A DNA stretch of 64,000 nucleotides from an uncultured Pseudomonadota bacterium (GCA_963836235.1 CAWIIP010000002.1:1952001-2016000), one strand, 5' to 3'; shown: positions 7,079 through 53,681, counted from the first letter of the stretch. Notes: generated by a model not told the origin, from the letters alone. Numbers and translations: made by a program.

Positions 7079-7777
7079 TCATTCCATTTTGAGCCGGTAT
7101 CCCACACCCGATTCGGTGACAATATACCTGGGCCGGTCGGGATCGGCCTCTATTTTCTGGCGTAGTTGGTAAACGTAAATTCTCAGGTATTGCACCTGGT
7201 CGCCGCTGGCTGGGCCCCAAACTTCCTGCAAAATCTGTTTTTGGGTGACGACTTTCCCCGCGTGGCGGATGAGAAAGGCCAGAAGGTCGTACTCGTTAGG
7301 AGTTAAATGCACTTCCTTACCCCGAACCGTGACGACCCGGGCGGAAAGATCCACTTTGAAGTCGGGGGTTTCGAAAACTGGGTCCTGTTTCCCTCCCTGT
7401 TTCACCGTCTGGGCGTGCCGAAGGGCCACTCGGATGCGGGCCATGAGTTCCCCCACGTCAAAGGGTTTGGTGAGGTAGTCGTCGGCCCCGGCGTCGAGTC
7501 CCGCGATCTTATCTTTTTCCTTGCCCCGGGCCGTGATGATGATGATGGGTGTGGTGGTCCATTCCCGCAGGCGTTTTACGACTTCCAATCCATCCAGGTC
7601 GGGAAGTCCCAGATCCAAAAGGATAATATCGGGGTTGTGGGATGAGGCTAGGGCCAAACCTTCCTCACCCTTAACGGATTCCAACACCTTGAAGCCCTGG
7701 CTTTGAAGGGTGGGTTTCAAGAAGCGCCGGATGGCAAGTTCGTCCTCAATGATCAAAACGGTTCCGCTGTCAGCCAT
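7079..7777 (-). CDS. kdpE: KdpE response regulator
   Basis: LDLGLPDLDG receiver, GADDYLTKPF, winged helix; directly downstream of kdpD. Confidence 0.93.
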   Translation of the reverse strand: MADSGTVLIIEDELAIRRFLKPTLQSQGFKVLESVKGEEGLALASSHNPDIILLDLGLPDLDGLEVVKRLREWTTTPIIIITARGKEKDKIAGLDAGADDYLTKPFDVGELMARIRVALRHAQTVKQGGKQDPVFETPDFKVDLSARVVTVRGKEVHLTPNEYDLLAFLIRHAGKVVTQKQILQEVWGPASGDQVQYLRIYVYQLRQKIEADPDRPRYIVTESGVGYRLKME

Positions 7778-7796
7778 GAATTTCCTCGTTTAAACT

Positions 7797-10493
7797 TTAA
7801 GCTTTTTCTTGGTTCGTCATCAAATCACTTTTCAAGGGCAGCGTGAAACGGAAGAGGGACCCGCCACCCGGCCCATTTTCAGCCGAAATCGTTCCGCCAT
7901 GAATCTCAATGATACCCTTACAAATGGAAAGTCCCAAGCCCGCTCCGCTCTTGGTTTCCTTTTGGGGTCCCCGGTAAAACTTCTCGAATAATCGGGGAAG
8001 ATCGGCTTCGGGGATTCCCGGCCCCCTGTCCGCCACTTCCATGACCAACCGGTTTTCCTTAACTTCCGCCGAGATATCGATAGGGGTTCCGTCGGGTGTG
8101 TATTTGAGGGCGTTGTCCAGGAGGTTCACCAGCACCTGTTCGATCAAAAGGGCGTCCATGGGGACCAAGGGGAGTTCGGGGGTGATTTGGGTGGTGAGGG
8201 AGCGGGATCCCAGCCTTCCCTCAACCCGTGCAATGGCCGATCCGATAATTTCCGCCGGGATATGCAGTTCCTTCCTCAATTGAACCGCGCCCGATTCGAG
8301 TTTGGTCATTTCCAAAAGATTATTCACCAGCCGTTCCAAACGCTCGGCTTCGTCGTGGATGTTTTCCAAAAGATCCCGGCGAGTCGCCGTCGGGAGGGAT
8401 TCCCCGTTATCCAACAGGCTGCTAGCCGAACCGGTGATGGCGGCCAAGGGCGTTCGCAAGTCGTGGGATACCGAACTCAAAAGGGAACTGCGCAGCCTTT
8501 CGGTTTCCACCTGCATCTGGGTTTGCTGCTGCTTTTCCGCCAGCTTGTCGCCGGCCACCGCCAACGCGGTCTGGTGGGCGAAGGCCTCCAACAAGTGCAA
8601 TTGCTCGGGAATTAAAAGTTTTTCAGGGTTGGATGGTTTCACCCCCAGGGCACCCACCGGAGCGCCGGAGGCCAACAAGGGTACGTAAAGCGCCTCCGTG
8701 CCGGGCAAAGTGTCGGTGCCCCGGCCCGCCATCTGGCCCAGGTCGAAAGCCCAGTGGGCCACGCCCATTTCCTTGGCGGTCAGGTTAAATTCATTCATCG
8801 CCCCACAATGGACTTTCAGCCGCCCGTTTTCATCGGGTAAAAAGGCGATGACGGAACTTTCAAAGACCTCGGAGATATGTTTGACCGCGATCTCTAAAAT
8901 TTCCTCAGTGCCCCGGGTGGAGGCCAACTCCCGCGACAGGGAGTAAAGGGCGGCAGTCCGCCGTTCCCGAAGGCGGGAAAGCTTGGCCTGGTTCCTGATC
9001 CTTACCGTCAAGTTACTGATAGAAAGGCCCACCAAGAGCATGACGAGGAACATAAAAATATATTGGGTGTCGGATACCGCGAAGGAGAAACGCGGGGGAA
9101 CGAAAAAGAAGTCGAAAGCGATGACGCTTAAAAAGGAAGCCAACGTGGAAGGGCCTAGGCCCTGGCGGTAGGAAAAGGCCAGTATGCCAAGCAGGTACAC
9201 CATAATGAGATTGGCCAGGTCCACTCTCGGAAATAGCAGCCAAGCTACACCGGTACTGATGGCTACCGTTAATAAGGAATAGCCATAACCCTTCCAGTCG
9301 ATGGATCTCTTGGACAGACCCGTTTGGGTCCGTCTTTTCTCTCTTAAATCGGCGATTTCGCCTTTGGTAGCGTAAACATCGATGTCCCCACTAGCCCTTA
9401 AAAGCTGATCCACGGGGGAAGGCTTTAATAGGCTTCGCCAGGAATATTGCGGGGGTTTGCCGATGAAGATCTTGGTGATGTTCCGTTCCCGGGCATAATC
9501 CATGACTTCCTCGGCGAAATTTTGGCCGCTTAAGGTGGCGGTTTCAGCTCCCAATTGTTCGGCCAAACGAAGGTGTTGGATGGCCCGGGTGCGCAATTCT
9601 TCCGAAAGGCCGGCCTGGGAAGGCGTTTCAACGTAAAGAGCTATCCAATTGGAGCGCAGGGATTTGGCCATACGGTGTGCGGCCCGCACCAGATTGGCCG
9701 ATGAGGGGCTGGGGGATACGCAAACCAAAATCTTGTCCGCTGTGGCCCAAGTTTGGGTGATGGCCTTGGTTTTTCGGTAGTCCTGCACCTGGTCATTGAC
9801 ACGGTCAGCGGTAATCCGCAGGGCCATTTCACGGAGCGCGATCAGATTGCCTTTGCGGAAGAAATTTTTGACGGCCCGCTGGGCCGCCTCGGCCATGTAA
9901 ACCTTTCCTTCCTGGAGGCGCTTTAAGAGGTCGTCGGGAGGGAGGTCAATCAACTCCACCTCATCGGCCGTTTCCAAAACCTTGTCTGGGAGGGTTTCAC
10001 GCACGACGACGCCGGTGATCTGGGCCACGATGTCGTTCAGACTTTCCAGGTGTTGGACATTGAGAGTGGAATAGACGTTCACCCCCAGGTCCAAGAGTTC
10101 CTGAACATCTTGCCAGCGTTTCAAATGCCGGGCGCCGGGCGCGTTGGTATGGGCCAATTCGTCGACCAAAAGAAGGCCGGGTTTGCGTTTCAGGGCCCCG
10201 TCAATGTCGAATTCCTTCAGCTTGGCTCCGCGGTATTCCAGTTCCTGGGAAGGAAGAATTTCGAGCCCCTCCAGCATGGCCGCTGTTTCCTTACGTCCAT
10301 GGGTTTCCAAAAGGCCCACCACCACGTCCACCCCCTCGGCCTTTTTGGCCCGGGCGGCTTCCAGCATCGAATAGGTTTTTCCCACGCCGGGCGAGGAGCC
10401 GAAAAAAATCTTCAGCTTGCCCCTTTTTTCCTGCGCGGCTTCCATTTGGACACGGTTGAGGAGCTGGTCGGGATCGGGGCGTTTGTCGTTCAT
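7797..10493 (-). CDS. kdpD: Full-length K+-sensing histidine kinase KdpD
   Basis: GKLKIFFG..PGVGKTY, VDELAHTN, USP domain, 4 TM, GAF, SHDLRTPL HisKA, HATPase. Confidence 0.97.
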   Translation of the reverse strand: MNDKRPDPDQLLNRVQMEAAQEKRGKLKIFFGSSPGVGKTYSMLEAARAKKAEGVDVVVGLLETHGRKETAAMLEGLEILPSQELEYRGAKLKEFDIDGALKRKPGLLLVDELAHTNAPGARHLKRWQDVQELLDLGVNVYSTLNVQHLESLNDIVAQITGVVVRETLPDKVLETADEVELIDLPPDDLLKRLQEGKVYMAEAAQRAVKNFFRKGNLIALREMALRITADRVNDQVQDYRKTKAITQTWATADKILVCVSPSPSSANLVRAAHRMAKSLRSNWIALYVETPSQAGLSEELRTRAIQHLRLAEQLGAETATLSGQNFAEEVMDYARERNITKIFIGKPPQYSWRSLLKPSPVDQLLRASGDIDVYATKGEIADLREKRRTQTGLSKRSIDWKGYGYSLLTVAISTGVAWLLFPRVDLANLIMVYLLGILAFSYRQGLGPSTLASFLSVIAFDFFFVPPRFSFAVSDTQYIFMFLVMLLVGLSISNLTVRIRNQAKLSRLRERRTAALYSLSRELASTRGTEEILEIAVKHISEVFESSVIAFLPDENGRLKVHCGAMNEFNLTAKEMGVAHWAFDLGQMAGRGTDTLPGTEALYVPLLASGAPVGALGVKPSNPEKLLIPEQLHLLEAFAHQTALAVAGDKLAEKQQQTQMQVETERLRSSLLSSVSHDLRTPLAAITGSASSLLDNGESLPTATRRDLLENIHDEAERLERLVNNLLEMTKLESGAVQLRKELHIPAEIIGSAIARVEGRLGSRSLTTQITPELPLVPMDALLIEQVLVNLLDNALKYTPDGTPIDISAEVKENRLVMEVADRGPGIPEADLPRLFEKFYRGPQKETKSGAGLGLSICKGIIEIHGGTISAENGPGGGSLFRFTLPLKSDLMTNQEKA

Positions 10494-11133: not shown

Positions 11134-12933
11134 ATGAATACCAATCAATGGATGCAGATCATCATTTTCTTCGTGGTACTCCTGGCCCTGGTAAAACCCT
11201 TGGGAACTTATATGGCCCGGGTTTACGGGGACAAACCCTTCTTCATGGAAAAACTGATCGGCTGGCTGGAAAGGCTGATCTACCGGATTTGCGGCATCAA
11301 CCCGAAGAAGGAAATGGACTGGAAGGGTTATGCGCTTGCCATGCTGGCCTTCAATATCATGGGGGGGATCTTCCTTTACACCCTCATGCGCGTCCAGCAA
11401 TGGCTACCCCTGAACCCGGCGGGCCAGTCCGCGGTCCCGCCCGACCTTTCCCTCAACACCGCCGTCAGTTTCATCACCAACACCAACTTCCAGTTCTACG
11501 GCGGGGAGACCACCCTCAGCTACCTGACCCAGATGTGCGGCATGACGGTGCAGAACTTCGTCTGCGCGGCATCCGGGCTGGCGGTCATGATCGCCCTCAT
11601 CCGGGGCATCGCCCGGAAGGAAACCACCAAGATCGGCAATTTTTGGGCCGACCTGGTCCGGGGCACCCTTTATATCGTCCTGCCCATGAGTTTCATCTTC
11701 GCCCTCGTCCTGCTCCAACAGGGGACGCCCCAGACCTTCGCCGCTTACCCCAGCGCCACGCTGGTCCAGCCGACTTCCTATGACCAGCCGGTGACGACCG
11801 CGGCCGGGGCGCCGGTGACGGGCAAGGACGGCAAACCCGAGACAACGCATGTGGCGGTGACCGAACAGCCTATCGCCCTGGGACCCATGGCCTCGCAGAT
11901 ATCGGTCAAGCAGCTTTTCACCAACGGGGGCGGTTTCATGAACGTCAACTCCGCCCATCCTTATGAGAACCCCACGCCATTGACCGATTTCCTTGAGCTC
12001 ATGGCCGTTTTCCTCATTTCCGTCGCCCAGTTCTACACCTTCGGCGTGATGGTCAAGGACCGGCGCCAGGGATGGGCGCTGATTATCGCCATGTTCCTCA
12101 TCTTCGCGCCGATGTTCTACCTGTGTTTCGCCTCCGAGCAAGGTGGGAACCCGGTCTTGAACAAGCTGACCATGGGGACGCATGGGGAAACTCTCCATGA
12201 CGGCAATATGGAGGGTAAGGAAGTGCGCTTCGGCATCGTCAATTCCACCCTTTGGGCCACGGCCTGTACGGCCACTTCCAACGGTTCGGTCAACTCCATG
12301 CACGATTCCTATACGCCCCTGGGGGGCCTGGTGCCCCTTTGGCTGATTGAATTGGGGGAGGTTATTTTCGGCGGGGTGGGCTGCGGGCTTTACGGCATGC
12401 TGGCCTTCGTCGTCGTGGCGGTTTTCGTGGCGGGGCTCATGGTGGGCCGAACCCCCGAGTACCTGGGGAAGAAGCTCGGGGCCTTCGAGACCAAGATAGC
12501 CTCCATCGCCATCCTGGTTCCGGCGCTCCTGACCTTGATTTGCACGGCCATCGCGGTGGTCTCCGACGGCGGCAAGGCCGGCCCCTCGAATCCCGGCGCG
12601 CACGGGTTCTCCGAAATCCTATACGGTTTTGCCTCCATGACCAACAACAACGGCAGCGCCTTTGCCGGGCTTAACGGCAATACCTTTTATGAACTGTTGG
12701 GGGCGGCGGCCATCTGGTTCGGGCGTTTCTGGATCAAGATTCCCGTACTTGCCCTGGCGGGAAGCCTGGCCAAAAAGAAGGTCGTGCCGGAAAGCGCGGG
12801 AACCCTCGCGACCCATACGCCCCTGTTTATCATCATGCTGATCTCCACGGTTTTGATCGTCGGGGCACTGGTGTTCTTCCCGGCCATGGCCCTAGGCCCT
12901 ATCGTGGAGCATTTAAAGATGCTGAAAATGTGA
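11134..12933 (+). CDS. kdpA: K+-transporting ATPase subunit A
   Basis: NTAVSFITNTN.Q.Y.GE, TNGGGF, NSAHPYENP, SNGSVNSMHDS, NNNGSAFAGL. Confidence 0.98.
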   Translation: MNTNQWMQIIIFFVVLLALVKPLGTYMARVYGDKPFFMEKLIGWLERLIYRICGINPKKEMDWKGYALAMLAFNIMGGIFLYTLMRVQQWLPLNPAGQSAVPPDLSLNTAVSFITNTNFQFYGGETTLSYLTQMCGMTVQNFVCAASGLAVMIALIRGIARKETTKIGNFWADLVRGTLYIVLPMSFIFALVLLQQGTPQTFAAYPSATLVQPTSYDQPVTTAAGAPVTGKDGKPETTHVAVTEQPIALGPMASQISVKQLFTNGGGFMNVNSAHPYENPTPLTDFLELMAVFLISVAQFYTFGVMVKDRRQGWALIIAMFLIFAPMFYLCFASEQGGNPVLNKLTMGTHGETLHDGNMEGKEVRFGIVNSTLWATACTATSNGSVNSMHDSYTPLGGLVPLWLIELGEVIFGGVGCGLYGMLAFVVVAVFVAGLMVGRTPEYLGKKLGAFETKIASIAILVPALLTLICTAIAVVSDGGKAGPSNPGAHGFSEILYGFASMTNNNGSAFAGLNGNTFYELLGAAAIWFGRFWIKIPVLALAGSLAKKKVVPESAGTLATHTPLFIIMLISTVLIVGALVFFPAMALGPIVEHLKMLKM

Positions 12934-13021
12934 AAACCAGTCGTCAGTCGGCAGTCCGCGGTCGGCAGCAAAGACTTCCAAAGCACTTACTGAAAACCAC
13001 TGACTGCCCCAAGGTGCGCAG

Positions 13022-13288
13022 ATGTTACAGATAGAAAAGGAAATGATCGGACTGCTGATGAAGGGGGCTTCCACCCCGATGGAGAACATCCAGGTTTCTT
13101 TTTTCCTGGTGGCCTGGTCCGCGTTGTTACTGGCCGTATTAAGGATGGTTCAACATGGCGAAGAAAAACAGGGCTTCACGCAAGCTGAAGGTATCCAAGA
13201 ACTCGCGAGGGATTTCGCGAAAAAAACCGGGGCCGAAACGCAAACCAAAGCCCGCCCCCCGGTCCGGCGGAAGGTTAATAGCAAATAA
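13022..13288 (+). CDS. Possible small single-TM protein between kdpA and kdpB
   Basis: AAGGTG upstream; one hydrophobic segment [16 protein letters not shown]. Confidence 0.35.
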
Positions 13289-13334
13289 AGTTTTGATTCA
13301 AGAGTTGCCAGATTCGAAAAGAGGAGAAAAGAAA

Positions 13335-15407
13335 ATGACAGAACACACGAAAGAACGAAAACTGTTTGAGGGCGAGATTACCCGTAAGGCGGTCCTCGAG
13401 TCCTTCAAAAAGCTGAACCCGGCCCACATGGTCAAGAACCCGGTCATGTTCACCGTTTGGGTCGGCAGCGTCTTGACCACAGGGCTTTGGCTGCAAGCCA
13501 TTTCCGGCAAGGGGGAGGCCGCCGCCGGCTTCATTTTCGAGGTTTCCCTGTGGCTGTGGTTCACGGTGCTTTTCGCCAATTTCGCGGAAGCCATGGCCGA
13601 GGGCCGGGGCAAGGCCCAGGCCGACACCCTGCGCAAGAGCCGCCAGGAAGTGAAGGCCAAGAAACTGGCCAAGCCCGAGAAGGATTCCAAGATGAGTGAA
13701 GTCCTGTCCGGCGACCTGCGCAAGGGCGACCTGGTGCTGGTGGAAGCGGGGGATTTCGTTCCCGCGGACGGGGAAGCAGTGGTGGGCGTGGCCATGGTGG
13801 ACGAATCGGCCATCACCGGCGAATCGGCCCCCGTGGTGAGGGAATCCGGTGGGGACCGCAGCGCGGTCACTGGCGGCACCAAGGTCATTTCCGACTGGCT
13901 TATCATCAAAGTTTCATCCAATCCGGGCGAGTCCTTCCTGGACCGCATGATTTCCATGGTGGAGGGCGCCAAGCGGCAGAAGACGCCCAACGAGATCGCC
14001 CTGAACATCCTCCTGGCGGCCTTGACCATCGTGTTCCTCATCGTCTGCGCCACCCTGCTGCCCTTTTCCATCTATAGCGTGGCGGTTTCGGGCTCGGGCC
14101 TGGTGGTGACCGTGACCGTTTTGGTGGCCCTTTTCGTGTGCCTGGCGCCTACCACCATCGGCGGTTTGCTATCGGCCATCGGCATCGCGGGCATGGATCG
14201 CATGATCCAGGCCAATGTCATCGCCATGTCGGGCCGGGCGGTTGAGGCCGCGGGTGACGTGGACATGCTTTTACTTGATAAAACCGGCACTATCACTTTG
14301 GGCAACCGCCAAGCTACCGAATTTATCCCTGCCGATGGCGTGGACATCAAGGAACTGGCTGAGGCCGCCCAACTTTCCTCGCTTTCGGACGAAACGCCCG
14401 AAGGGCGCAGTATCGTGGTTTTGGCCAAGGAAAAGTACGGGCTACGGGGGCAGGAGATTCACGACTTGCACGCCACTTTCGTGCCCTTCACGGCGCAAAC
14501 CCGCATGAGCGGCGTGGATATTGGGAAGCGCGCCATTCGCAAGGGAGCTGCCGAATCCATTGAGAACTACGTGAAAGACCAGGGGGGGAAATATCCGGAT
14601 GACGTGCGCAAGGGTGTGGATTCCATCTCACGCCTGGGTGGTACGCCCCTGGTGGTGGCCGATGGGAAAAGGGTCATGGGCGTCATCTATTTGAAGGACA
14701 TCGTCAAGGGAGGAATCCAGGAACGCTTCGCGGAATTGAGACGCATGGGCATCAAGACCGTAATGATCACGGGCGACAACCCCCTGACCGCCGCGGCCAT
14801 CGCGGCGGAAGCCGGCGTGGACGACTTTTTGGCCCAAGCCACGCCGGAAGCCAAACTGAAGCTCATCCGGGAATCCCAGGCGGGAGGCCGCCTGGTGGCC
14901 ATGGCGGGGGACGGCACCAACGACGCGCCGGCCCTGGCGCAAGCCGATGTGGCGGTGGCCATGAACACGGGCACCCAGGCCGCCAAGGAAGCGGGCAACA
15001 TGGTGGATTTGGATTCCAACCCCACCAAGCTGATCGAGGTGGTGAAGATCGGCAAACAGCTCCTCATGACCCGGGGTTCGCTGACCACCTTCTCCATCGC
15101 CAACGACGTGGCGAAATATTTCGCCATCATTCCGGCGGCCTTCGCGCTGACCTATCCGGAGCTCAACACCCTGAACATCATGCACCTGGCCACGCCGCAG
15201 TCGGCCATTTTGTCCGCCGTCATCTTCAATGCGGTCATCATCGTGTTCCTGGTGCCCCTGGCCCTCAAGGGGGTGAAGTACCGGCCCGCTTCGGCTTCCA
15301 AGCTATTACAGGATAATTTCCTGATATATGGGGTGGGGGGACTGATCGTGCCTTTTATCGGAATCAAGTTGATCGACATGATTTTAGTGGGATTGGGATT
15401 AGTCTAA
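13335..15407 (+). CDS. kdpB: K+-transporting ATPase subunit B
   Basis: GAGGAG RBS before MTEHTK; [25 protein letters not shown]. Confidence 0.98.
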
Positions 15408-15425
15408 GAAAAGGAAAAGGTAAGA

Positions 15426-15536
15426 TTTACCGCGAAGGCGCGAAGAACACGAAGAAAGTCATTGCGATGAAAAAGAAATACTTGCTTTTGAAAATAGCCG
15501 GTGTTTTCGCGGACTCCGCGTCTTCGCGGTGAAAAT
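15426..15536. repeat. Intergenic long imperfect inverted repeat with 9-nt CGCGAAG-type units
   Basis: TTTACCGCGAAGGCGCGAAGAACACGAAG ... TTCGCGGACTCCGCGTCTTCGCGGTGAAA. Confidence 0.6.
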
Positions 15537-15549
15537 TTAGGAGGATTAC

Positions 15550-16143
15550 ATGTTTAAAGAATTAGGAATTCAATTCAGGATCTCATTGGCCGCCATGGTG
15601 TTTTTTACCCTCTTTTGCGGCCTCATTTACCCGGGGGTGGTGACCTTGGTGGGGCAGGCCGTGTTTCCCCGCCAAGCCAACGGCAGCCTGATCGAAGTGA
15701 ACGGAAAAACGGTGGGGTCGGAACTCATCGGCCAGCCTTTTGACGACCCTAAGTATTTCTGGGGCCGGCCTTCCGCGACCTCTCCTTTTGCCTACAACGC
15801 CGCCAATTCCAGCGGTTCCAACCTGGGCCCGACCAATCCGGCCTTTATCAGCTCCGTTAAGGCCAACGTGGACGCCCAGCGCAAGGCCAATCCGGACATG
15901 GCGGACAAGCCCGTGCCGATGGACCTGGTGACGGCCTCGGGATCGGGGCTGGACCCCCACATCAGCCCGGCGGGCGCCGAGTACCAGGCGGCCCGCGTGG
16001 CCAAGGTTAGGAACCTGGCCCCTGCCAAGGTGGAAGAATTGATCGCCCAAAATACCGATGGCCGCTGGCTGGGGTTCATCGGCGACCCGGGAGTAAACGT
16101 GTTGAAACTCAACCTCGCCCTGGACGCTTTGGACTCAAAGTAA
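15550..16143 (+). CDS. kdpC: K+-transporting ATPase subunit C
   Basis: [43 protein letters not shown]. Confidence 0.98.
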
Positions 16144-16176: not shown

Positions 16177-16518
16177 ATGAAAAAAATTGAGGCCATTGTC
16201 CGGCCCGAGAATTTCGAGAAAATCAAAGCCGCGATGGAAAGGGTCGGCTACGACGGAGTGACCCTGACCGAGGTGGAAGGCCAGGGGCGCCAGAAGGGCC
16301 TGGCCCAGCAGTTTAAGGGCTACAAATTCAACGTGGACTTTTTGCCTAAATTAAAAATGGAAATTGTGGCCGCCGACGGCGACGTCGCGAAGATCGTCCA
16401 GGCTATCCTGGGGACGAAGACCGGCGGACAGGCGGGGGACGGCAAGATATTCGTGTATGGTATTGAGGAAGCCTATCGCATCCGTGACGGAGAAAAAGGG
16501 GAAAAGGTTGTTTCCTGA
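16177..16518 (+). CDS. PII family signal transduction protein at the end of the kdp operon
   Basis: MKKIEAIVRP, G.GRQKG, FLPK, GDGKIFV; 33 nt after kdpC. Confidence 0.95.
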   Translation: MKKIEAIVRPENFEKIKAAMERVGYDGVTLTEVEGQGRQKGLAQQFKGYKFNVDFLPKLKMEIVAADGDVAKIVQAILGTKTGGQAGDGKIFVYGIEEAYRIRDGEKGEKVVS

Positions 16519-17740: not shown

Positions 17741-18433
17741 TCAGGGAATTCCCGCTTCCTTTTGAATCATTTCCGGATTCAATATTTTGATCTTCTTCTT
17801 TGCCCGAAGGATGAGTTTTTTCTTCTCCAAATCCCCCAGGTAGCGCATTAGGGTTTCGGGGGCGGTGTCCGAAAGCTCCGACATGTCGGTGCGGGACAAT
17901 TCCATCTGCAGGAAACCGTCGGGCCGGACGCCATAGTTTTTCATTAAAAAACAAAGGACCCGGGCTACCCGCTGTTCGGCGGGCATCTGGGCGGCTCCGA
18001 CCAGCCGGTCCTCCACTTCCCCCAGTTCCATACTGAGACTTTTCAAAAGCAGGTGGACCAACAGTTTGTCTTTTTGGAGGTAGTTGATGAAAAATTCCTT
18101 CTCGATGAAGGCGATCTTCGTATCGAGCAGAGATTCGGCGGTGACTTTGTAGAGCTCCCCTGTCAAAAGGGCCCGGTAGCCGAAAAGATCCCCCTTGCCG
18201 CCCATAAAAGTAATGTGCTGGCGCCCGGCCTTGCCTGATTTGAAGAGCTTGATGATTCCGTGGTGGATGTAATAAACCCCGAAAGGTTCGGTGCCTGTGT
18301 AAAAGATGTCCTGGCGGGGTTTGTAGAGGTGTTCGGTGATGACCGGAGCGCCTTTTTGGGTGGCGGCTTCCAGCAATCCCTGCAAGATTTTATGTTTCTC
18401 GGAAAACAAGCTGTCGTAGAAAGTGGGGTTCAT
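17741..18433 (-). CDS. Crp/Fnr family transcriptional regulator
   Basis: cNMP-binding beta-roll (GDLFGY) and C-terminal HTH (SRTDM...PETLMR). Confidence 0.92.
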   Translation of the reverse strand: MNPTFYDSLFSEKHKILQGLLEAATQKGAPVITEHLYKPRQDIFYTGTEPFGVYYIHHGIIKLFKSGKAGRQHITFMGGKGDLFGYRALLTGELYKVTAESLLDTKIAFIEKEFFINYLQKDKLLVHLLLKSLSMELGEVEDRLVGAAQMPAEQRVARVLCFLMKNYGVRPDGFLQMELSRTDMSELSDTAPETLMRYLGDLEKKKLILRAKKKIKILNPEMIQKEAGIP

Positions 18434-18557: not shown

Positions 18558-20537
18558 TTAAATCACCCGCACTGGCACGATCATCATGTTCACGCCCTTG
18601 AAAAGCAGGCGGCGTTGGATTTCCAAGGCGGTTTGGTTGTGCAGCAGATTCGTCCAAAGGGATTCCTTGGCGAAGATGAGCTTACCCGAGAAGAAGGTCG
18701 CGTCGGAAAAGTCGGCGGAAACCAATTCGCACAGCCTTTCCATCCCGGCGATGACGTCGATATCCTCCACGTGCCGGAAGTCGGCCCGGTAACCCATCTT
18801 GTGGGCCAGGGCTACATATTTCCCTAGGTTTTCCTCGGTATTTTTCCTCAGGTTATCCAGTTCTTCAATCCCCTTGAACTTGCTGGAGTCGATGCGGCCG
18901 ATAGAAACGAAAAGAAAATCCTGGAAACGGTTGGCGAAAAGCTTTTGGATCGAAAAGATGGCGTGGATGCCCAATCCGTTATAGCGCTCCACCATCACCA
19001 CCGCGACCGCTTTGGCTTTATCGCAGGGCCCCAGGGCGGGCTCGCTGGTGTCCCGATCCGGCAAAGGAAGGTTGGTCAGAGCGTCGTCCAGGCGGGTTAG
19101 GGCTTGCTGGACTCCCTTGTAGTGGCGCTTTACCAAGAAACAAATAACGATGAGGACGGTCGTTAAGGCGATGGTCACGAAGCCGCCTTCGAGGAATTTG
19201 GCCATCACGGTCGCTACTAAAATAATGGAAGTCAGAGTCAAACCCAGTCCGTTGATAAAGAACCGGCTTTTCCAATCCTTTTGTTCGCGGCGGGCCTGCC
19301 ACCAGTGGATACACATCGAAAGCTGGGACAGGCTGAAAGTGATATAAACATTGATCGCATAAAGTACGATAAGGGTGTCCACGTTGCCCTTGGCCAGTAT
19401 GAGGATCACTAGGGTCGAGACGCCCATCACGAGAATTCCGTTCATGCGAACCAGCCGGTGGGAAAGGTTGGCGAAGCGGTGGGGAAGCCAGGAATCGGCG
19501 GCCATGTTGGACAAAACGTTGGGGCCGTCGATGAAGCCGGTTTGGGCGGCAATGAAGAGAAGCATGCCTTCCGAAAGTAAGGTCAGGTAGATAAGCCATT
19601 GGCCCAGCGGCAGGCCGAAAGCCGTCCAGGGCCCGAAGATGGCTTTGGCCAGGGTACCGTTCATGGTCTCGTTCTGGACGGCCTGAATATCCCAGAGCAT
19701 GTATAAAAGCAGGATCCCGCCCGCGGTGAAGGCCAGGGAAGTCGCCATGTAAAGCATGGTGCGCTTGCCCGTTTTCACCCTGGGCTCCCTCAGGTTCGCC
19801 AAGCCATTGGAGACCGCCTCAATGCCCGTGTAGGTTCCCCCGCCCAGGCTGTAGGCCGTGAAAAAGATGACGATAAATCCCCAAACCCCCAAAGGCCCCC
19901 CGACAATCTCGTGGGTCTCTCTGAAGGTGCTTTGAACGACGGGTACGATTTGGGAGCCGTGGCCAAGCAATCCCGCCGCGATCAGGATGATATGGGTTCC
20001 CACGAAGACCAGGAAGATGGGAAGAAGGGCGGTCACCGATTCTTTGATGCCCCGCATATTGAGCCAAATCAAAAGAAGAACCAGAAGCACTTCGATGGAC
20101 AGCTTGTGGGCAACGAAAAAAGTCGGCATGAAATCGGCGATAGCGTCCACGCCCGCCGCGATAGAAATGTTGATAGTCAGGATATAGTCCACGATGAGGG
20201 CGGAGCCGGAAATAAGGCCGGCCACGGGATGCAAGAGTTTGCTAGCCACCACGTAACCGCCGCCGCCCGAGGGGAAATGCTCGATCACCTGGCTATAGCT
20301 GGCGGAAATGATGAAGACGGTAGCGGCCACCGCGATGGCGAGGTAGAGGGCGATGTGGTGGTATTGGGCGCCCAGGGCCTTATAGGTTTCCTCGGGGCCG
20401 TAGGCTGAGGAGGACAGCCCGTCGGCTCCCAGTCCCACCCAGGCCAGGAAAGCGATGAGGCTCAGTTTGTGAAAGACATTCTGATCGAGAGGATTTTTGG
20501 CCTTGCCAAAGACAAGTTCTCTTACTTTTTCCACCAT
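18558..20537 (-). CDS. KimA/YdaO-like APC-family K+ transporter
   Basis: ADGLSSSAYGPEE, FPSGGGGY, VDYILT, TGIEAVSNG; cytosolic C-terminal domain; upstream c-di-AMP riboswitch. Confidence 0.9.
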   Translation of the reverse strand: MVEKVRELVFGKAKNPLDQNVFHKLSLIAFLAWVGLGADGLSSSAYGPEETYKALGAQYHHIALYLAIAVAATVFIISASYSQVIEHFPSGGGGYVVASKLLHPVAGLISGSALIVDYILTINISIAAGVDAIADFMPTFFVAHKLSIEVLLVLLLIWLNMRGIKESVTALLPIFLVFVGTHIILIAAGLLGHGSQIVPVVQSTFRETHEIVGGPLGVWGFIVIFFTAYSLGGGTYTGIEAVSNGLANLREPRVKTGKRTMLYMATSLAFTAGGILLLYMLWDIQAVQNETMNGTLAKAIFGPWTAFGLPLGQWLIYLTLLSEGMLLFIAAQTGFIDGPNVLSNMAADSWLPHRFANLSHRLVRMNGILVMGVSTLVILILAKGNVDTLIVLYAINVYITFSLSQLSMCIHWWQARREQKDWKSRFFINGLGLTLTSIILVATVMAKFLEGGFVTIALTTVLIVICFLVKRHYKGVQQALTRLDDALTNLPLPDRDTSEPALGPCDKAKAVAVVMVERYNGLGIHAIFSIQKLFANRFQDFLFVSIGRIDSSKFKGIEELDNLRKNTEENLGKYVALAHKMGYRADFRHVEDIDVIAGMERLCELVSADFSDATFFSGKLIFAKESLWTNLLHNQTALEIQRRLLFKGVNMMIVPVRVI

Positions 20538-42585: not shown

Positions 42586-43290
42586 TTAATCAATCTGTAA
42601 CCGGTAGCCCACTCCGGGTTCGGTCAGGAAATGTTGGGGACGGCCAGATTCGTTTTCTAATTTATTCCTTAAGTTATTCATATGGACCCTCAGGTAATGG
42701 GCTTGGTCGGAGTAAGCTTCACCCCATATCTCAGTCAATAGCTGGCGCTGGGTTACCACTTTTCCGGCGTGGCGAGTTAGGATCGCCAGCAATCCGAATT
42801 CGCGTTTTGTTAAATGGACCTCTGTACCGGCCTTTAAAATTCGACGATGGGCCAAGTCTACTTCCAAGTCACCGTGCTTGAATACCGCTTCTTCGCTTTT
42901 TCCAATCGCTTCTTGGGTGCGCCGCAGGGCCGAGCGAATGCGAGCCAGAAGTTCTTGGACGCCGAAAGGCTTGGTCAAGTAATCGTCCGCGCCCCGGTCT
43001 AAGGCGGCTACCTTGTCCGATTCCCTGTCCCGGGCCGAAACCACAATGATGGGTTTTTTGGACCACTCCCGCAAGCGTTTCATAACCTCCAGTCCGTCCA
43101 TATCGGGCAGCCCTAAGTCCAGCAGAACCACGTCCGGATTGCGGGTGGCGGCTTGTACAAGACCTTCCTCTCCCGTCGAGGCTTGAAGGTAGTTGTAACC
43201 GCTGGCCGACAAGGTTGCCTTTAGGAAAAGACAGATGGGAGCCTCGTCCTCAATACATAAGACTGAAAGTTTTTCTTTTTCCATCGTCAT
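42586..43290 (-). CDS. Second KdpE-like response regulator
   Basis: LDLGLPDMDG, GADDYLTKPF, HAGKVVTQRQLL, TEPGVGYR; ATGA overlap with the kinase. Confidence 0.92.
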   Translation of the reverse strand: MTMEKEKLSVLCIEDEAPICLFLKATLSASGYNYLQASTGEEGLVQAATRNPDVVLLDLGLPDMDGLEVMKRLREWSKKPIIVVSARDRESDKVAALDRGADDYLTKPFGVQELLARIRSALRRTQEAIGKSEEAVFKHGDLEVDLAHRRILKAGTEVHLTKREFGLLAILTRHAGKVVTQRQLLTEIWGEAYSDQAHYLRVHMNNLRNKLENESGRPQHFLTEPGVGYRLQID

Positions 43291-44417
43291 TCCTCTTGGA
43301 CTGCGGGGGGAGTCCCCCCGGTGGGGAGCGTGACAATAAAGGAAGCCCCACCGCCAGAGCGGTTGCTGGCAATGATGTCCCCGCCATGGGCCCGGGCTAT
43401 GGCTAAACAAATACTAAGTCCCAGCCCCGCACCTTTTCCACCGCTATGATAGCCCCGGATGAATTTCTCGAATATGGATTTTTCCTCTCCCGGTTTCAAG
43501 CCGGGACCCCGGTCCGCGACTTCCATCTCCAACCCATCCTCCCCGGCTTTCACCGACAAGTGGATAGATGTTCCCCGCGGGGTATGATTAAGGGCATTCT
43601 GCAAAAGGTTCAATAAAAGCTGCTCCACCAGAAGGCCGTCGATGAAGGCGAGGGGAAGCTTGGGCTGAAAGTCCAGGGTGAGAGGAGTCTGAGTAAGGCG
43701 GGGTTTCAACCGCTCCAAGGCCACTCCCACCAGTTCCTCCACGGACTGCCATTCCTTTTTCGGTTCCAGTGCCCCCGCTTCCAAGCGGGTCATGTCCAAT
43801 AGGTTTTGAACCAAGTGCTTCAAACGTTCCGCTTCAATGTAGATGGATTTTGTTAGCAAGAAGCGTTCCTCCGGATTCAAGACACCCTTATCCTCCAAAA
43901 GCCCGCTGGCGGCCCCAATAATGGAGGTCAGGGGTGTTCTCAAATCATGTGAGACGGCGCTTAAAAGAGCGCTACGGTTTTTCTCGTTCTCGGCGGCAAT
44001 CCGGAGCTTTTCCGCCTGGCGGGATTTGGTCGCCAGAGCGCTGATCACCAGGCTTTCCACCAGCATGACCAACAAAGTCATCCAGCTCTCAGGCCGGGCG
44101 ATAGTTAAACTGAAATAGGGTGGTATAGCGAAAAAATCGAGGGCTAAAGCCCCCAGGACCGACGCGGTCAAGGCCGGGCCCCGCCCCCACCAGAAGGAAA
44201 TTCCTACGACGCCCAAAAGGTAAAACGTGCCGATGGCGGAAGGATCCAGGGTCTGGCGTAGCAAGTATCCCGGCAGCGTGATAACCGCGACGATTAAAAC
44301 ACTCCCGACATATTTTCGAAAGCTTTCCTGATTTGAGAGTCTCTTGAAGGCGGGAAAGGGAAGACCAGATGATTTTTTGACGGAAAAATTTTTGAATTTT
44401 GGGAAAAGTTTGGACAT
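43287..44417 (-). CDS. Minimal KdpD-like kinase (4-TM DUF4118 + HisKA + HATPase only)
   Basis: DFFAIPPYFSL TM motif joined directly to SALLSAVSHDLRTPL; no KdpD-N, USP or GAF domain. Confidence 0.88.
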   Translation of the reverse strand: MSKLFPKFKNFSVKKSSGLPFPAFKRLSNQESFRKYVGSVLIVAVITLPGYLLRQTLDPSAIGTFYLLGVVGISFWWGRGPALTASVLGALALDFFAIPPYFSLTIARPESWMTLLVMLVESLVISALATKSRQAEKLRIAAENEKNRSALLSAVSHDLRTPLTSIIGAASGLLEDKGVLNPEERFLLTKSIYIEAERLKHLVQNLLDMTRLEAGALEPKKEWQSVEELVGVALERLKPRLTQTPLTLDFQPKLPLAFIDGLLVEQLLLNLLQNALNHTPRGTSIHLSVKAGEDGLEMEVADRGPGLKPGEEKSIFEKFIRGYHSGGKGAGLGLSICLAIARAHGGDIIASNRSGGGASFIVTLPTGGTPPAVQEE

Positions 44418-44696
44418 GAATTTAAGGGGCCTTTTGATTTTCACTATTTTGAATGGGTTAGTATAAGAACAAAAATTTTTATTGCGAATAGTGACACAAA
44501 AAAGAGGATCCGAGTTCAAAAGTTCATTAATTTTTTAGTTCCGAATTTCAAATTAAGCGGAATGAGGACCTTTCAAGAAAAAAATAGTGGGTTCAATTTA
44601 AGCCTACACAATTGTCATTAACGACGTTGGTTGTCTTTTGGTACCTTTTCTGGGGACTTGCCTTTGATCCATTTCGCGGGTTTCCTCTCGCTCTGC

Positions 44697-44744
44697 ATCA
44701 AGAAAACATCAAGAAACTACCTTTGAAATCAAGGGGGCGTAAAT
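44697..44744. promoter_or_regulatory. OmpR/KdpE-type direct-repeat array
   Basis: ATCAAG at 44697, 44708, 44728 and GTAAAT at 44739 (11/20/11), just upstream of TTGACT at 44749. Confidence 0.6.
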
Positions 44745-44926
44745 TTTTTTGACTCAGGAAAAATATTTTTTATTTTCATGAAAATTTTTTCGTTTTTCCC
44801 AACGGAATTTTAATTTTAAAAATTCTCGAGGGATAAAAACTGGTTTTTTAAACGCGGGTGAGTGGCACGACCTTTGCTTTAGGTCCTGTGACATCCGCTT
44901 CAGTTATTTCAAAACAGGAGGAAATT

Positions 44927-46903
44927 ATGGCTAAGTCAGCGTCACCCCAAGCGCCTTCAGTGGTCGAACGGGTACTCGATTGGAAAGGGGCAGCCACAAA
45001 CGCTATGGCGCTGATCGCGCCGGGCGCCTTTTTGTGGATCACTTATCAAGGGCAATCGGCCGCGTCCGATTGGACCGGTAATGGTTGCCCGAACGACATG
45101 TGGTTCGGCATTCTCGTGGCCCTAGTCTTGGCTCTGTTGACGGCTCTTTCCTACGCCGAATTGGCGAAGATCTACCCGGAAGCGGGTTTCGCCGGTGCCG
45201 TCTATTTTGCCGAAAAGGCCTTTATCGACGACGGGAAGCTCAAACGCCCCGGGCCAGCCTCCATGGCCCGTGTCGCCAAACTTATCACCGGCTGGGCCGC
45301 CCATTTGTTCTACTGGGTTTATCCCGGCGTCATGGTAGCCACCTTCGGCAACTTGATCTCTTACCTGTATGGAGTAGTGACCAATGGTAAGACTTTGGAT
45401 ATGACTTGGGAAATGGTCATGGTCTGCCTCTTCACCGTCGGGGTGGGGTACATCGCCCACCGGGGCGTCCAGGGTTCAACCAAGACCAATATGTGGGGCA
45501 ACTTCATCCAATGGGGCACACTAATCATCTTCAGCTTACTGGCGATCGGATACCGCATGAGCAACCCGGAACACGCCACCACTTGGGCCTTTACCGACGG
45601 TTTTGACGTCGTGAAGTTTCACACCCTCAAGGGAGTGCTGACCCAGGCCACCATCGCCATCCTGATCCTGGTCGGCTTTGAGAGCTGCACCTCCCTCGCG
45701 GCCGAAACCAAGGAGCCGGAAAAGAACATACCGAAGGCCATCATTGTGGCGCTGATCGTGCAGTGCGTATTCGCTTACATGTTCGAGTATTTTTGCGCCA
45801 ACCTGGTAGTGAACGAAAAGTTTGTGGGATCGGTTCCTGTACCGGCTGTTGCGGCCGTTGCCGCCGTACCCATGAGCGTCTCGGGTGGTGTCACGACAGC
45901 AGCAGTCGCTGCGGTTGCCGCTGCTCCCGCGACCACGAAGGCCGTTTACGGTATGGATGCCATGGCCGCTTCCTCGGCGCCCATCGGTGACATGATCACG
46001 CACATCGGCAACAGCATGCTGGGCGGCATCGGACTCACACTCATGTACATCATGGCGCTCACTGTTTTGATCGCGGTAGTGGGAACCACCCTGGCTTGCA
46101 TCAACACGGGTGTCCGCGTCACCACCGGTATGGCGGAGGACCGGGAACTGCCTCCGGTGTTTGGCTTTATCCACCAAAAATTCGCCTCGCCCTATACCGC
46201 CATCTGGTTCATGGTCGCCCTTTCTTGCGTCATCGGCATCGTCGGGATTCAGTCGGTCGACACTTGGCTGGGTATCACCTTCGCTTCCAACTTGGGGACC
46301 TTCGTGCTTTACGGTTCGGTCTGTATCTGGACTATCATCGCTTATAAGAACCGCAAGGATTTCAACTTTCTCAAGCACGGGCTCATCCCTTTCGGGGGTT
46401 TGGTCTTAAACGTAGCCATGTGTTGGGGTATTTTTTATGAAAACACCACCGCCGCCGCTTCAGCGGACCAACATACCCAGGTCAAGATTTGCTTCATCAT
46501 CGCGGCTTCCTGGGCCTTGCTTTACGGATTGTGGGTCTTGGCGCATTCCACCTTGAAATCCCATGCTATGAAGATGATCTCGGTCATCATCCGGCCTGAT
46601 TCGCTAGATAACCTGGCGGACGCCTTGAATAAGGAGGAATTGGTCCAGGGCATGACCATCTCCGAGGTCAAGGGTTTCGGCCGCACCAAGGGATCCAAAA
46701 CGGACGACATGCCTTCCAAGGTCAAGTTCCTAGACAAGGTCCGGGTGGACGTGGTTGTGAATGAGTGGGATGTCCCGCATGTTATCGAAGTTATGAAGGA
46801 AGTCCTATACACCGGCAACAAGGGCGACGGAAAGATTTTCGTTCTAGAAACGGACGAAGCTGTCCGTGTCCGCACGGGTGAAACAGGAGTAGCCGCAGTT
46901 TAA
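44927..46903 (+). CDS. APC-family permease fused to a C-terminal PII domain
   Basis: AGGAGG RBS; SYAELAKIYPEAG, LVGFESC..LAAE.KEP; in-frame MKMISVIIRP...GFGR.KG...TG..GDGKIFV...VRVRTGE from 46568. Confidence 0.92.
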   Translation: MAKSASPQAPSVVERVLDWKGAATNAMALIAPGAFLWITYQGQSAASDWTGNGCPNDMWFGILVALVLALLTALSYAELAKIYPEAGFAGAVYFAEKAFIDDGKLKRPGPASMARVAKLITGWAAHLFYWVYPGVMVATFGNLISYLYGVVTNGKTLDMTWEMVMVCLFTVGVGYIAHRGVQGSTKTNMWGNFIQWGTLIIFSLLAIGYRMSNPEHATTWAFTDGFDVVKFHTLKGVLTQATIAILILVGFESCTSLAAETKEPEKNIPKAIIVALIVQCVFAYMFEYFCANLVVNEKFVGSVPVPAVAAVAAVPMSVSGGVTTAAVAAVAAAPATTKAVYGMDAMAASSAPIGDMITHIGNSMLGGIGLTLMYIMALTVLIAVVGTTLACINTGVRVTTGMAEDRELPPVFGFIHQKFASPYTAIWFMVALSCVIGIVGIQSVDTWLGITFASNLGTFVLYGSVCIWTIIAYKNRKDFNFLKHGLIPFGGLVLNVAMCWGIFYENTTAAASADQHTQVKICFIIAASWALLYGLWVLAHSTLKSHAMKMISVIIRPDSLDNLADALNKEELVQGMTISEVKGFGRTKGSKTDDMPSKVKFLDKVRVDVVVNEWDVPHVIEVMKEVLYTGNKGDGKIFVLETDEAVRVRTGETGVAAV

Positions 46904-46923: not shown

Positions 46924-46962
46924 AAAGCCCCAGTGGAAGCTCACAGGGGCTTTTTTGTTTTT
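46924..46962 (+). terminator. Intrinsic terminator
   Basis: AAAGCCCCAGTG...CACAGGGGCTTTTTTGTTTTT. Confidence 0.8.
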
Positions 46963-48749: not shown

Positions 48750-49063
48750 TTAATTAAGACTCCTCATTTTGTTGGTTCGGTAAAAAGAGAGACGATTCTA
48801 AAGCCAACCCTCGATTTGCGGTCTAAATATTTTTTATATTTTGGTTTAGGTTTGGCAGACGCCAAAGTCATTGCAGCCCATTTTGGGTGGATTAGCGACC
48901 GTTTTGGCTTACAAAACCTGCCTCCCCATTTTTAGGCTGAAATTCCGTTATTTGTATATGTCTACATAAATGTAATCTTATTTTTAATAATTTTACGTTA
49001 TTTTTATTCTAATTTTAACTTCTTGATGAATCTTTTACTTGTTTTTTAAGGTCTTCGATCAGA

Positions 49064-49079
49064 TGGCATAAGCCTTGCT
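49064..49079 (+). promoter_or_regulatory. Sigma-54 (-24/-12) promoter of amt1
   Basis: TGGCATAAGCCTTGCT (GG-N10-GC). Confidence 0.85.
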
Positions 49080-53268: not shown

Positions 53269-53665
53269 TCAAACTGGGTCTTTGGTTAGTTTAATTTGGA
53301 GACCATGCTTTAACTTTTCCAAATTTTATTGAACCTGTCGGATTGAATTCTTGTATTTTTTTTCACCGTTGTGGGCCACCTTGGTGTTAATTGTAGGGAC
53401 TCAGATAATTGGGTAAGGTGTCTCTCTAAGCCGGGGAAACCGAATCGCTGAGTTTGGTTCTCTTTTTTAATTCACCGGTGTTTATCATTTTCATTTGTTT
53501 AGCCCCTCAAGAAAATTTCGATTTGAGAGCTAAAAAAGCTTCTTCAAAAATGTTACAAAATTGTATTTATTCCTTATTAATGTAGCGCTTTACGTTATTG
53601 GATTTTTACCACATTAAAAAAGCCTTATTTTTGAAAGCTTTTTACACAAATTTTTTATTGGTAAA

Positions 53666-53681
53666 TGGCATAAGGCTTGCT
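53666..53681 (+). promoter_or_regulatory. Sigma-54 promoter of the porin gene
   Basis: TGGCATAAGGCTTGCT, 15/16 identical to the amt1 promoter. Confidence 0.85.

Follow-up and report, generated by a model that had tools for sequence, protein, structure and literature searches.

In Escherichia coli, the K+-responsive sensor kinase KdpD and its response regulator KdpE control kdpFABC. The portion of Silberberg et al. 2024 available to us (PMC11018627) describes proposed K+ sites in the membrane domain of E. coli KdpD (for external K+) and in its GAF domain (for internal K+), and presents free-standing kinases of the transmembrane (TM)/GAF/DHpCA form as common. Proteins bound in the loops of sigma54 enhancers are reported, in the accessible sections of three further papers, to raise or lower output (PMC4740811, PMC3897727, PMC3900584). 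Here, we describe a relative of KdpD/KdpE encoded beside a sigma54-type promoter in a 64,000-nt stretch of DNA (the window) from an uncultured Pseudomonadota bacterium with a 3.97 Mb genome. Two overlapping genes on the minus strand encode a minimal KdpD-type histidine kinase and an OmpR/KdpE-like response regulator, and one divergent gene on the plus strand encodes an APC-family permease with a C-terminal PII domain.

The sensor pair, seen in a single family of an uncultured soil phylum, is a lineage-specific offshoot of KdpD/KdpE. We propose, with confidence only slightly above an even balance, that it provides an enhancer-dependent promoter of the nitrogen type with a second input, and that the regulator binds inside the enhancer loop. 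The proposal is built on computed evidence of intact genes, conserved architecture and synteny, a conserved order and spacing of cis elements, and the co-occurrence of a repeat array with the sensor pair.

A repeat array between a candidate enhancer and a sigma54-type promoter

An alignment of four orthologous intergenic regions (A2; mean column identity 54%) contains four conserved islands: CTACACAATTGTC, a set of ATCAAG repeats, TGGCAC-N5-TTGC, and the ribosome-binding site of the permease gene. The last of these is a Shine-Dalgarno AGGAGG (44916..44921, + strand), conserved in A2 and located 5 nt 5' of the permease ATG at 44927, the start codon at which the first-pass annotation of the region had ended.

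The third island belongs to a predicted sigma54-type promoter, TGGCACGACCTTTGCT (44863..44878, +), that is invariant across the orthologous intergenic regions. The -24/-12 element of this promoter, TGGCAC-N5-TTGCT, is located 64 nt 5' of the permease ATG and does not vary among 12 loci; it was absent from the first-pass annotation. The permease promoter is one of 10 exact sigma54 consensus matches in the genome. The pattern TGGCAY-N5-TTGCW has 14 sites genome-wide, three of which are in the window, upstream of the permease gene, Amt1 (at 49064) and a porin operon (at 53666). Upstream of the permease promoter is the near-palindrome TACACAATTGTC (TACA-N4-TGTH; 44605..44616, +), invariant in A2 and a candidate enhancer, or upstream activating sequence, for a sigma54 activator. 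TACA-N4-TGTH motifs number 97 on both strands of the genome, and one is found 5' of each of the three sigma54-like sites in the window, at distances of 258 bp (permease), 101 bp (Amt1) and 112 bp (porin). We regard the palindrome as a candidate shared enhancer of a nitrogen-type sigma54 regulon. The Amt1 palindrome is TACA-N4-TGTA (48963-48974) with its promoter at 49064-49079, and the corresponding elements of the porin (BBP2) operon are at 53554-53565 and 53666-53681; the sigma54-like promoter sequence of both is TGGCATAAG(C/G)CTTGCT.

Polymerase containing sigma54 requires an AAA+ activator. Because the predicted permease promoter is of this type, an OmpR-family regulator cannot be its sole activator. 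The genome contains rpoN (one Sigma54_DBD match) and 13 Sigma54_activat matches, 10 of them at E <= 1e-19, corresponding to approximately 10 enhancer-binding ATPases, and none of the genes for these ~10 proteins is within the window.

Four direct hexamers occupy 44697..44744 (+) between the palindrome and the promoter, with ATCAAG at 44697, 44708 and 44728 and GTAAAT at 44739, and are candidate sites for two regulator dimers. The first-pass annotation had described ATCAAG repeats spaced 11/20/11; the spacing and three exact copies hold, but the fourth copy is degenerate. ATCAAG as such is not enriched in the window (45 found, 32 expected), and ATCAAG-N5-ATCAAG occurs twice in the genome versus 0.45 expected. 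Same-strand direct repeats with an 11-bp period are the usual operator of OmpR/PhoB-family regulators, and the array has this form, with all copies on one strand and a period of ~11 bp. No array like that at 44697-44744 was seen upstream of kdpA when this region was inspected by eye.

To compare these elements between organisms, we used 12 loci in which the permease gene is linked to the sensor pair (from five genera plus one metagenome contig) and a control set of 20 upstream regions of APC-PII genes without the pair; repeat scoring allowed flexible spacing, since the middle gap is 20 or 21 bp depending on the locus. All 12 linked loci have the elements in one order: palindrome, 70-83 bp, R1-11-R2-20/21-R3-11-R4, 117-131 bp, TGGCAY-N5-TTGC. 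The array consensus is RTMAAK, with 18-23 of 24 matches to ATCAAG, and in every linked locus all four repeats are on the permease strand and point toward the permease. The distance from palindrome to promoter is 258-260 bp in three loci and 269-273 bp in the other nine, approximately one helical turn apart. Distances from the kinase start to the repeats range from 173 to 443 bp (two kinase starts are mis-set by a few bases). Because the repeats keep a fixed distance to the promoter and a variable one to the kinase gene, they are phased to the permease promoter and not to the kinase gene.

Of the 20 control promoters, none has the array (their highest scores are 13-18 of 24), and 13 contain a sigma54-like site. 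In four unlinked copies from the family (G001, G010, G016 and the second copy of G020), the palindrome is only 91-131 bp from the -24 element. The repeat cassette thus travels with the sensor pair, and the segment that carries it has the look of an insertion, brought in together with the pair, within an enhancer-promoter unit that was already there.

A few other features of the intergenic region were examined. Between the repeats and the -24 element, the DNA (44750-44860) is very AT-rich, with phased A/T tracts, and includes a conserved AAATTTTAAT block, which could be a site for another protein or an intrinsic bend. We rejected a sigma70 promoter, TTGACT-16-TATTTT, located 5 bp past the last repeat, because it is confined to the window and A2 shows no conservation of its hexamers. 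An Rfam scan of 44300-45000 at E up to 1 gave three chance-level matches and no riboswitch or leader family, including the c-di-AMP (ydaO) family.

A KdpD-type kinase reduced to its membrane bundle and catalytic core

The kinase gene (43287..44417, - strand) encodes 376 aa, with its start set at the ATG at 44417 because orthologues begin nearby. Pfam recognizes DUF4118, HisKA and HATPase_c only (PF13493, DUF4118, scores 96.7 bits), and a Pfam scan found no KdpD-N (PF02702), Usp or GAF domain. The four-helix membrane bundle (DUF4118; residues 36-132, 44022..44312, -) consists, by hydropathy scan, of hydrophobic segments at residues 36-56, 59-77, 81-99 and 111-132 with loops of at most ~12 residues. 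The gap between DUF4118 and HisKA is 10 residues in Pfam, and the phospho-accepting histidine is residue 157, 25 residues from the end of TM4. Pfam and hydropathy thus agree with the first-pass description of a four-TM bundle joined by a short linker (~15 residues) to HisKA without KdpD-N, USP or GAF. What this kinase retains of KdpD is the membrane bundle, running straight into the catalytic core, and it has no periplasmic or cytoplasmic input domain.

The best NCBIfam match of the kinase is KdpD (NF007793), at 241.4 bits against a cut-off of 1123 and over model positions 648-889 only. Two genes in the genome exceed the DUF4118 cut-off, the minimal kinase and a full KdpD. The minimal kinase is not beside kdpFABC, and the kdpABC genes of the window have their own KdpDE. 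Across the 11 kinases of alignment A3, the H, N, G1, F and G2 boxes show no variation. A weak sigma70-like hexamer pair, TTCGCA-17-TATACT (44460..44488, -), lies 5' of the kinase start; it comes from a consensus scan only, in which the number of sites was not above that in shuffled sequence.

The regulator gene (42586..43290, -; 234 aa, MTMEKEK...) encodes Response_reg and Trans_reg_C domains. Its best NCBIfam match is KdpE (NF007820), at 273.6 bits and below the equivalog cut-off of 325, and it is 56% identical to the KdpE of the window. The regulator ATG and the kinase stop overlap (ATGA), and the two genes are, on this arrangement, translationally coupled. The partner regulator is conserved at 72-85% identity among orthologous loci.

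We examined kinase homologues through an exhaustive search over cluster representatives. Among the best 150 representatives, 27 are shorter than 420 aa, 81 have 420-599 aa, 20 have 600-799 aa, 20 have 800-999 aa, and two are longer. Pfam scans covered 26 of the 27 short representatives, and 25 of these consist of DUF4118-HisKA-HATPase_c with nothing between, although some may be partial open reading frames.

A census of 31 genomes of the organism's family identified kinase orthologues (>=60% identity) in 11, of which eight are short (357-392 aa) and three are long (519-544 aa). The short orthologues are 60-69% identical and have open frames. The long orthologues, from G018, G045 and G002, form TM/GAF/DHpCA kinases. 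Relative to these and to KdpD, approximately 150 residues are absent from the kinase of the window, and the extra ~150 residues of the long orthologues align to the GAF region of KdpD. With Pfam GAF_3 (cut-off 27 bits), G018 passes at 30.8 and G002 is below the cut-off. The same in-frame junction, ...SR|xxExHR..., is present in nine of nine short orthologues (from the eight genomes and one metagenome contig). It falls at kinase residues ~132-140, or ~43998-44022 of the window (compare loci L041, L135 and L127), and no clear flanking direct repeat was found in the three GAF-bearing junctions that were read.

In a tree built without the GAF columns, G018 joins the clade of the window (98/95) and G045 joins its own genus (98/96). 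These placements force at least three changes of GAF state. Constraining the short forms to group together changed the likelihood by -47 log-likelihood units (approximately unbiased test, p = 0.02), for a group that was named after the first tree had been seen. Two histories are consistent with the sequences: GAF was lost several times, always to the same helical register, or a single deletion allele spread by recombination.

Conservation and synteny of the PII-fused permease

The permease gene (44927..46903, +) encodes 658 aa with AA_permease and P-II matches in Pfam, the PII domain corresponding to ~46568-46903. A terminator-like hairpin 3' of the gene (46935..46954, +), found by pattern scan only, suggests that the gene is a monocistronic unit. 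Its best 120 relatives are 53-100% identical and are named 'amino acid permease' or similar, and 119 of the 120 carry PF00543; the family is large, conserved, uncharacterised and widespread. The fused PII retains ATP-binding (nucleotide-binding) motifs. Single-sequence and profile searches of solved structures with the permease returned only cationic amino-acid, xCT and ApcT carriers (E ~1e-3 to 1e-6), and on these matches we rejected the possibility that it is a KimA-like K+ carrier. Between conserved membrane blocks, at residues ~300-350 (~45830-45990), is an Ala/Val/Thr-rich stretch of low complexity (AVAAVAAV...AAVAAVAAAP), which occurs across the family and is variable.

The permease is present in 15 of the 31 family genomes and the kinase orthologue in 11, with both in 10. 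Only G002 has the kinase alone, and G001, G023, G010, G012 and G016 have the permease alone. Co-occurrence and synteny of the three genes, which the first-pass annotation had named as a check, are conserved in the family: the divergent layout is present in nine of the 11 orthologue-bearing genomes (G000, G018, G020, G005, G046, G044, G042, G043 and G045). In G011 the kinase and permease genes are at contig ends and so are outside these nine verified adjacencies. All eight family genomes with a GAF-less orthologue also have the permease, adjacent in seven and at contig ends in G011. The exception, G002, retains the kinase, the regulator and the entire cis module, and APC-PII was not found in its assembly (98% complete). 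The gene behind the G002 promoter begins with a signal peptide and an Ala/Pro/Thr-rich start, like Amt1 and the porin of the window, and then the contig ends.

Outside the family, the link between kinase and permease disappears. Of 80 metagenome loci compared, 28 have a PII-fused permease; a KdpD-type membrane kinase is near it in three of these and absent nearby in 25. The three comprise two orthologues (L047, from the G020 species, and L048) and one full KdpD. A free PII gene lies <=400 bp 3' of the fused permease in 20 of the 28 loci, and an Amt gene is present in 13. The free-standing PII after the fused permease was noted among loci L049-L065, L069, L117 and L121-L125, and this arrangement is absent from the family of the window.

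Related arrangements were seen within the family. G020 has a paralogous GAF-less pair (kinase 43% identical) that is divergent from an Amt-GlnK-GlnK-APC-PII operon, and G023 has a GAF-bearing counterpart of this paralogous pair in the same divergent placement. G044 has two tandem APC-PII genes (L132 3701-7992), the second with its own sigma54-like site. One APC-PII copy of G001 (C3; L038 6001-7970) is broken by frame shifts or stops, and genes for a regulator and a porin come after it. Relatives of the permease, PII-fused or not, are found directly beside kdpABC or full kdpDE in distant lineages, archaea among them: L044 (contig titled Methanoregula), L046 (titled Bathyarchaeia), L033 (G029), L054 and L092. 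This neighbourhood hints at a functional tie of the permease family to K+ homeostasis.

Proposed regulation and alternative explanations

From this arrangement we infer binding of the regulator to the repeats, activity of the promoter and its enhancer, a direction of the effect and a signal. The most likely target of the KdpE-like regulator is the set of four phased direct repeats between the divergent genes, where the two repeat pairs would take two regulator dimers. Rather than at a classical promoter, these repeats would sit in the loop between the palindromic enhancer and the sigma54 promoter of the PII-fused permease, and the phosphorylated regulator would most plausibly serve as an architectural factor or as an anti-activator that helps or hinders contact of the enhancer-bound activator with sigma54 polymerase. 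Expression of the permease would then follow nitrogen status via the enhancer and be gated by the signal of the minimal kinase. That signal is most likely external K+ or NH4+, a guess by analogy with the membrane domain of E. coli KdpD, and a kinase without GAF would keep only the membrane-embedded sensor.

Several points weigh against regulation inside the enhancer loop. We know of no OmpR-family regulator that activates a sigma54 promoter, and the proposed role would be unusual. The ATCAA core resembles the core of the IHF consensus, and another architectural protein could bind. The regulator might instead drive the sigma70-like TTGACT-16-TATTTT, though this is unconserved in the alignment. 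In G002 the cis module precedes a different gene, so what it is linked to is a kind of promoter and not solely this permease. The 12 linked loci share ancestry and do not count as independent cases. Finally, the K+/NH4+ signal is a guess from analogy, and the nearest solved relatives of the permease are cationic amino-acid carriers.

The first-pass annotation had suggested that the permease is both the regulated target of the pair and its missing sensory module. The first part agrees with our data, as the permease is divergent from the pair in 9/11 genomes and the array is present in 12/12 linked versus 0/20 unlinked promoters. In the second part, the minimal kinase would have no input of its own, and the PII-fused permease would act as its co-sensor by contact between their membrane parts or between PII and the kinase, with PII replacing the nucleotide-sensing domains of KdpD while the permease is also the target. 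We think this unlikely. It would fit a kinase with no extracytoplasmic or cytoplasmic input domain, which resembles transporter-dependent intramembrane-sensing kinases such as BceS-BceAB (PMC10314905, in the sections available), and transporter co-sensing by DctA/DcuS is cited in the available portion of PMC11018627. It would also fit the conserved adjacency (9/11 genomes), the permease in all eight genomes with a GAF-less orthologue, the paralogous short kinase of G020 (43%) divergent from an Amt-GlnK-GlnK-APC-PII operon, and the retained nucleotide-binding motifs of the fused PII. However, the GAF-bearing orthologues of G018 and G045 are equally adjacent to the permease, and domain loss and pairing are therefore not coupled. 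G002 has the kinase, regulator and cis module in a 98%-complete assembly in which APC-PII was not found, five of the 15 permease-bearing family genomes are without a kinase orthologue, 25 of the 28 metagenome fused permeases have no KdpD-type kinase nearby, and short kinases (<420 aa) recur in 27 of the 150 best representatives. The adjacency is equally explained by linkage of a regulator to its target, and the exceptions argue against an obligate partnership.

On balance, plain regulator-target linkage explains each of the comparative facts as well as or better than co-sensing. A sensory role of the permease, with PII in place of the nucleotide-sensing domains, gains no support from these data and is unnecessary given G018 and G045, G002, and the 5/15, 25/28 and 27/150 counts. 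The first-pass annotation had also set kinase homologues occurring without the permease against its own idea; this is seen in G002, which has the pair with no APC-PII found, but not in the nine of 11 genomes where the genes are adjacent. A complex prediction with permease residues 15-658 and kinase residues 30-376 (alignments A1 and A3) scored 0.00, which counts neither way for binding. An extended form, in which the kinase would have shed all its sensory domains because it monitors the PII-fused permease for its conformation or bound nucleotide, so that the ATP/ADP/2-oxoglutarate reading of PII would be relayed through an enhancer-loop OmpR-type regulator to a sigma54 promoter, seems to us quite unlikely.

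It is likewise rather improbable that the repeats act solely in autoregulation of the kinase and regulator genes or serve a sigma70 promoter of their own, with the permease controlled solely by the sigma54 activator and the adjacency incidental. Autoregulation is common among two-component systems, the intergenic region is common to both transcription units, and in the window a sigma70-like hexamer pair directly follows the last repeat. Against this, the repeats keep a constant spacing to the palindrome (70-83 bp) and the -24 element (117-131 bp) but are anywhere from 173 to 443 bp away from the kinase start, all four face the permease in every locus, and the sigma70-like site is unconserved in A2.

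The repeats could instead bind a general architectural protein (IHF/HU-like) rather than the adjacent regulator, an explanation that we consider very unlikely. The ATCAA core matches the start of the IHF consensus, and AT-rich tracts lie 3' of the repeats. Yet the array accompanies the pair in 12/12 linked loci and is found at 0/20 unlinked promoters of the same gene family, sigma54 ones included, and four same-strand copies in pairs with an 11-bp period fit winged-helix dimers. The TTR arm of the IHF consensus was not seen downstream, by eye, in the 12 linked-locus sequences. IHF sites are typically located between the enhancer and sigma54 promoters, according to the available part of one study (PMC3897727).

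That the short kinase is a functionless, decaying truncation of a second KdpD copy, a reading that the first-pass annotation had put up against its own and to which the absence of four of the domains of the full KdpD 33 kb away, KdpD-N, Usp and GAF among them, might point, is scarcely credible and is contradicted by intact catalytic motifs and open frames in nine short orthologues (60-69% identity, five genera), an identical in-frame junction among them, a coupled partner regulator conserved at 72-85%, and the recurrence of the short architecture.

Gene content of the window

The window is a dense cation and nitrogen island. Its kdpDE genes are at 7079-10493, where KdpD (7797-10493; 898 aa) has all six domains, and kdpABC is at 11134-16143. 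A PII gene (16177-16518, +) begins 34 bp past kdpC, as if it were a member of the kdp operon; in G002 (L127), kdpABC is followed by porin, PII, CitMHS_2 and PII genes. A second APC permease (18558-20537, -; 659 aa) is a clear homologue of the K+ importer KimA (PDB 6s3k, E 6e-59), and its gene is next to one for a Crp-family regulator (17741-18433) and to the kdp-PII unit. The window also encodes Amt1 with two PII genes and a CitMHS_2 carrier, and the porin and Amt2 with one PII gene each. The genome has seven PII genes, six of which are within the 64 kb.

Significance and comparison with known systems

The unusual features of this locus are a putative OmpR-type operator phased inside an enhancer loop and a repeated or shared loss of GAF. 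If regulation inside the loop is correct, a copy of the KdpD/KdpE module has lost all but its membrane bundle on the sensory side and now serves a transporter of a nitrogen cluster, which would be a natural experiment on which KdpD domains are required for signalling. An OmpR-family regulator at a fixed helical phase in a sigma54 loop would make a compact two-input promoter, of which we found no description. A literature search in which subscription journals were thinly covered found nothing on OmpR-family regulators at sigma54 promoters, on DUF4118-only kinases or on PII-permease fusions. K+ and NH4+ are chemically similar ions, and sensing of the K+ type would here be linked to the Amt/PII/APC-PII cluster of uncultured soil bacteria. 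The defined candidate operator and small kinase also give a handle on the uncharacterised APC-PII carrier family. Should the kinase after all read the PII state of the permease, this would be a new wiring of PII signalling to transcription.

The pair shares with E. coli KdpD/KdpE a homologous DUF4118 bundle, DHp/CA core and regulator. It differs in having no KdpD-N serine-kinase/ATP domain, Usp or GAF, in scoring below both equivalog cut-offs, and in that its presumed operator, the RTCAAG repeats, precedes the sigma54 promoter of a permease gene. Split KdpD, in which a separate KdpD/Usp protein accompanies a TM/GAF/DHpCA kinase (Silberberg et al. 2024; PMC11018627, available portion), also has the membrane-anchored C-terminal half as a standalone kinase. 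In contrast to that form, the kinase of the window is also without GAF, the proposed internal K+ sensor, and has no kdp association, and the portion of the paper available does not describe a GAF-less KdpD.

Like BceS-BceAB, DcuS-DctA and CadC-LysP, the pair combines a sensor that is anchored in the membrane but has no input domain with a neighbouring transporter gene, its probable target of regulation. Unlike the BceS type, it has four KdpD-type helices rather than two, and its transporter is a secondary carrier with fused PII. The comparative data do not require that the kinase depend on its transporter. The coupling of a carrier to PII, in a cluster with two Amt-PII pairs, recalls the ammonium channel AmtB and its PII regulator GlnK, but here PII is covalently fused to an APC-fold carrier that is the neighbouring gene of a sensor pair.

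The promoter itself resembles in layout the loop-modulated sigma54 enhancers (IHF at many promoters; CRP at Pu; synthetic NtrC, PMC4740811, as given in its accessible sections), in that the array is between the candidate enhancer and the -24/-12 element and its helical phasing is conserved. It differs in its presumed loop protein, which would be a phosphorylation-controlled OmpR-family regulator with a dedicated kinase.

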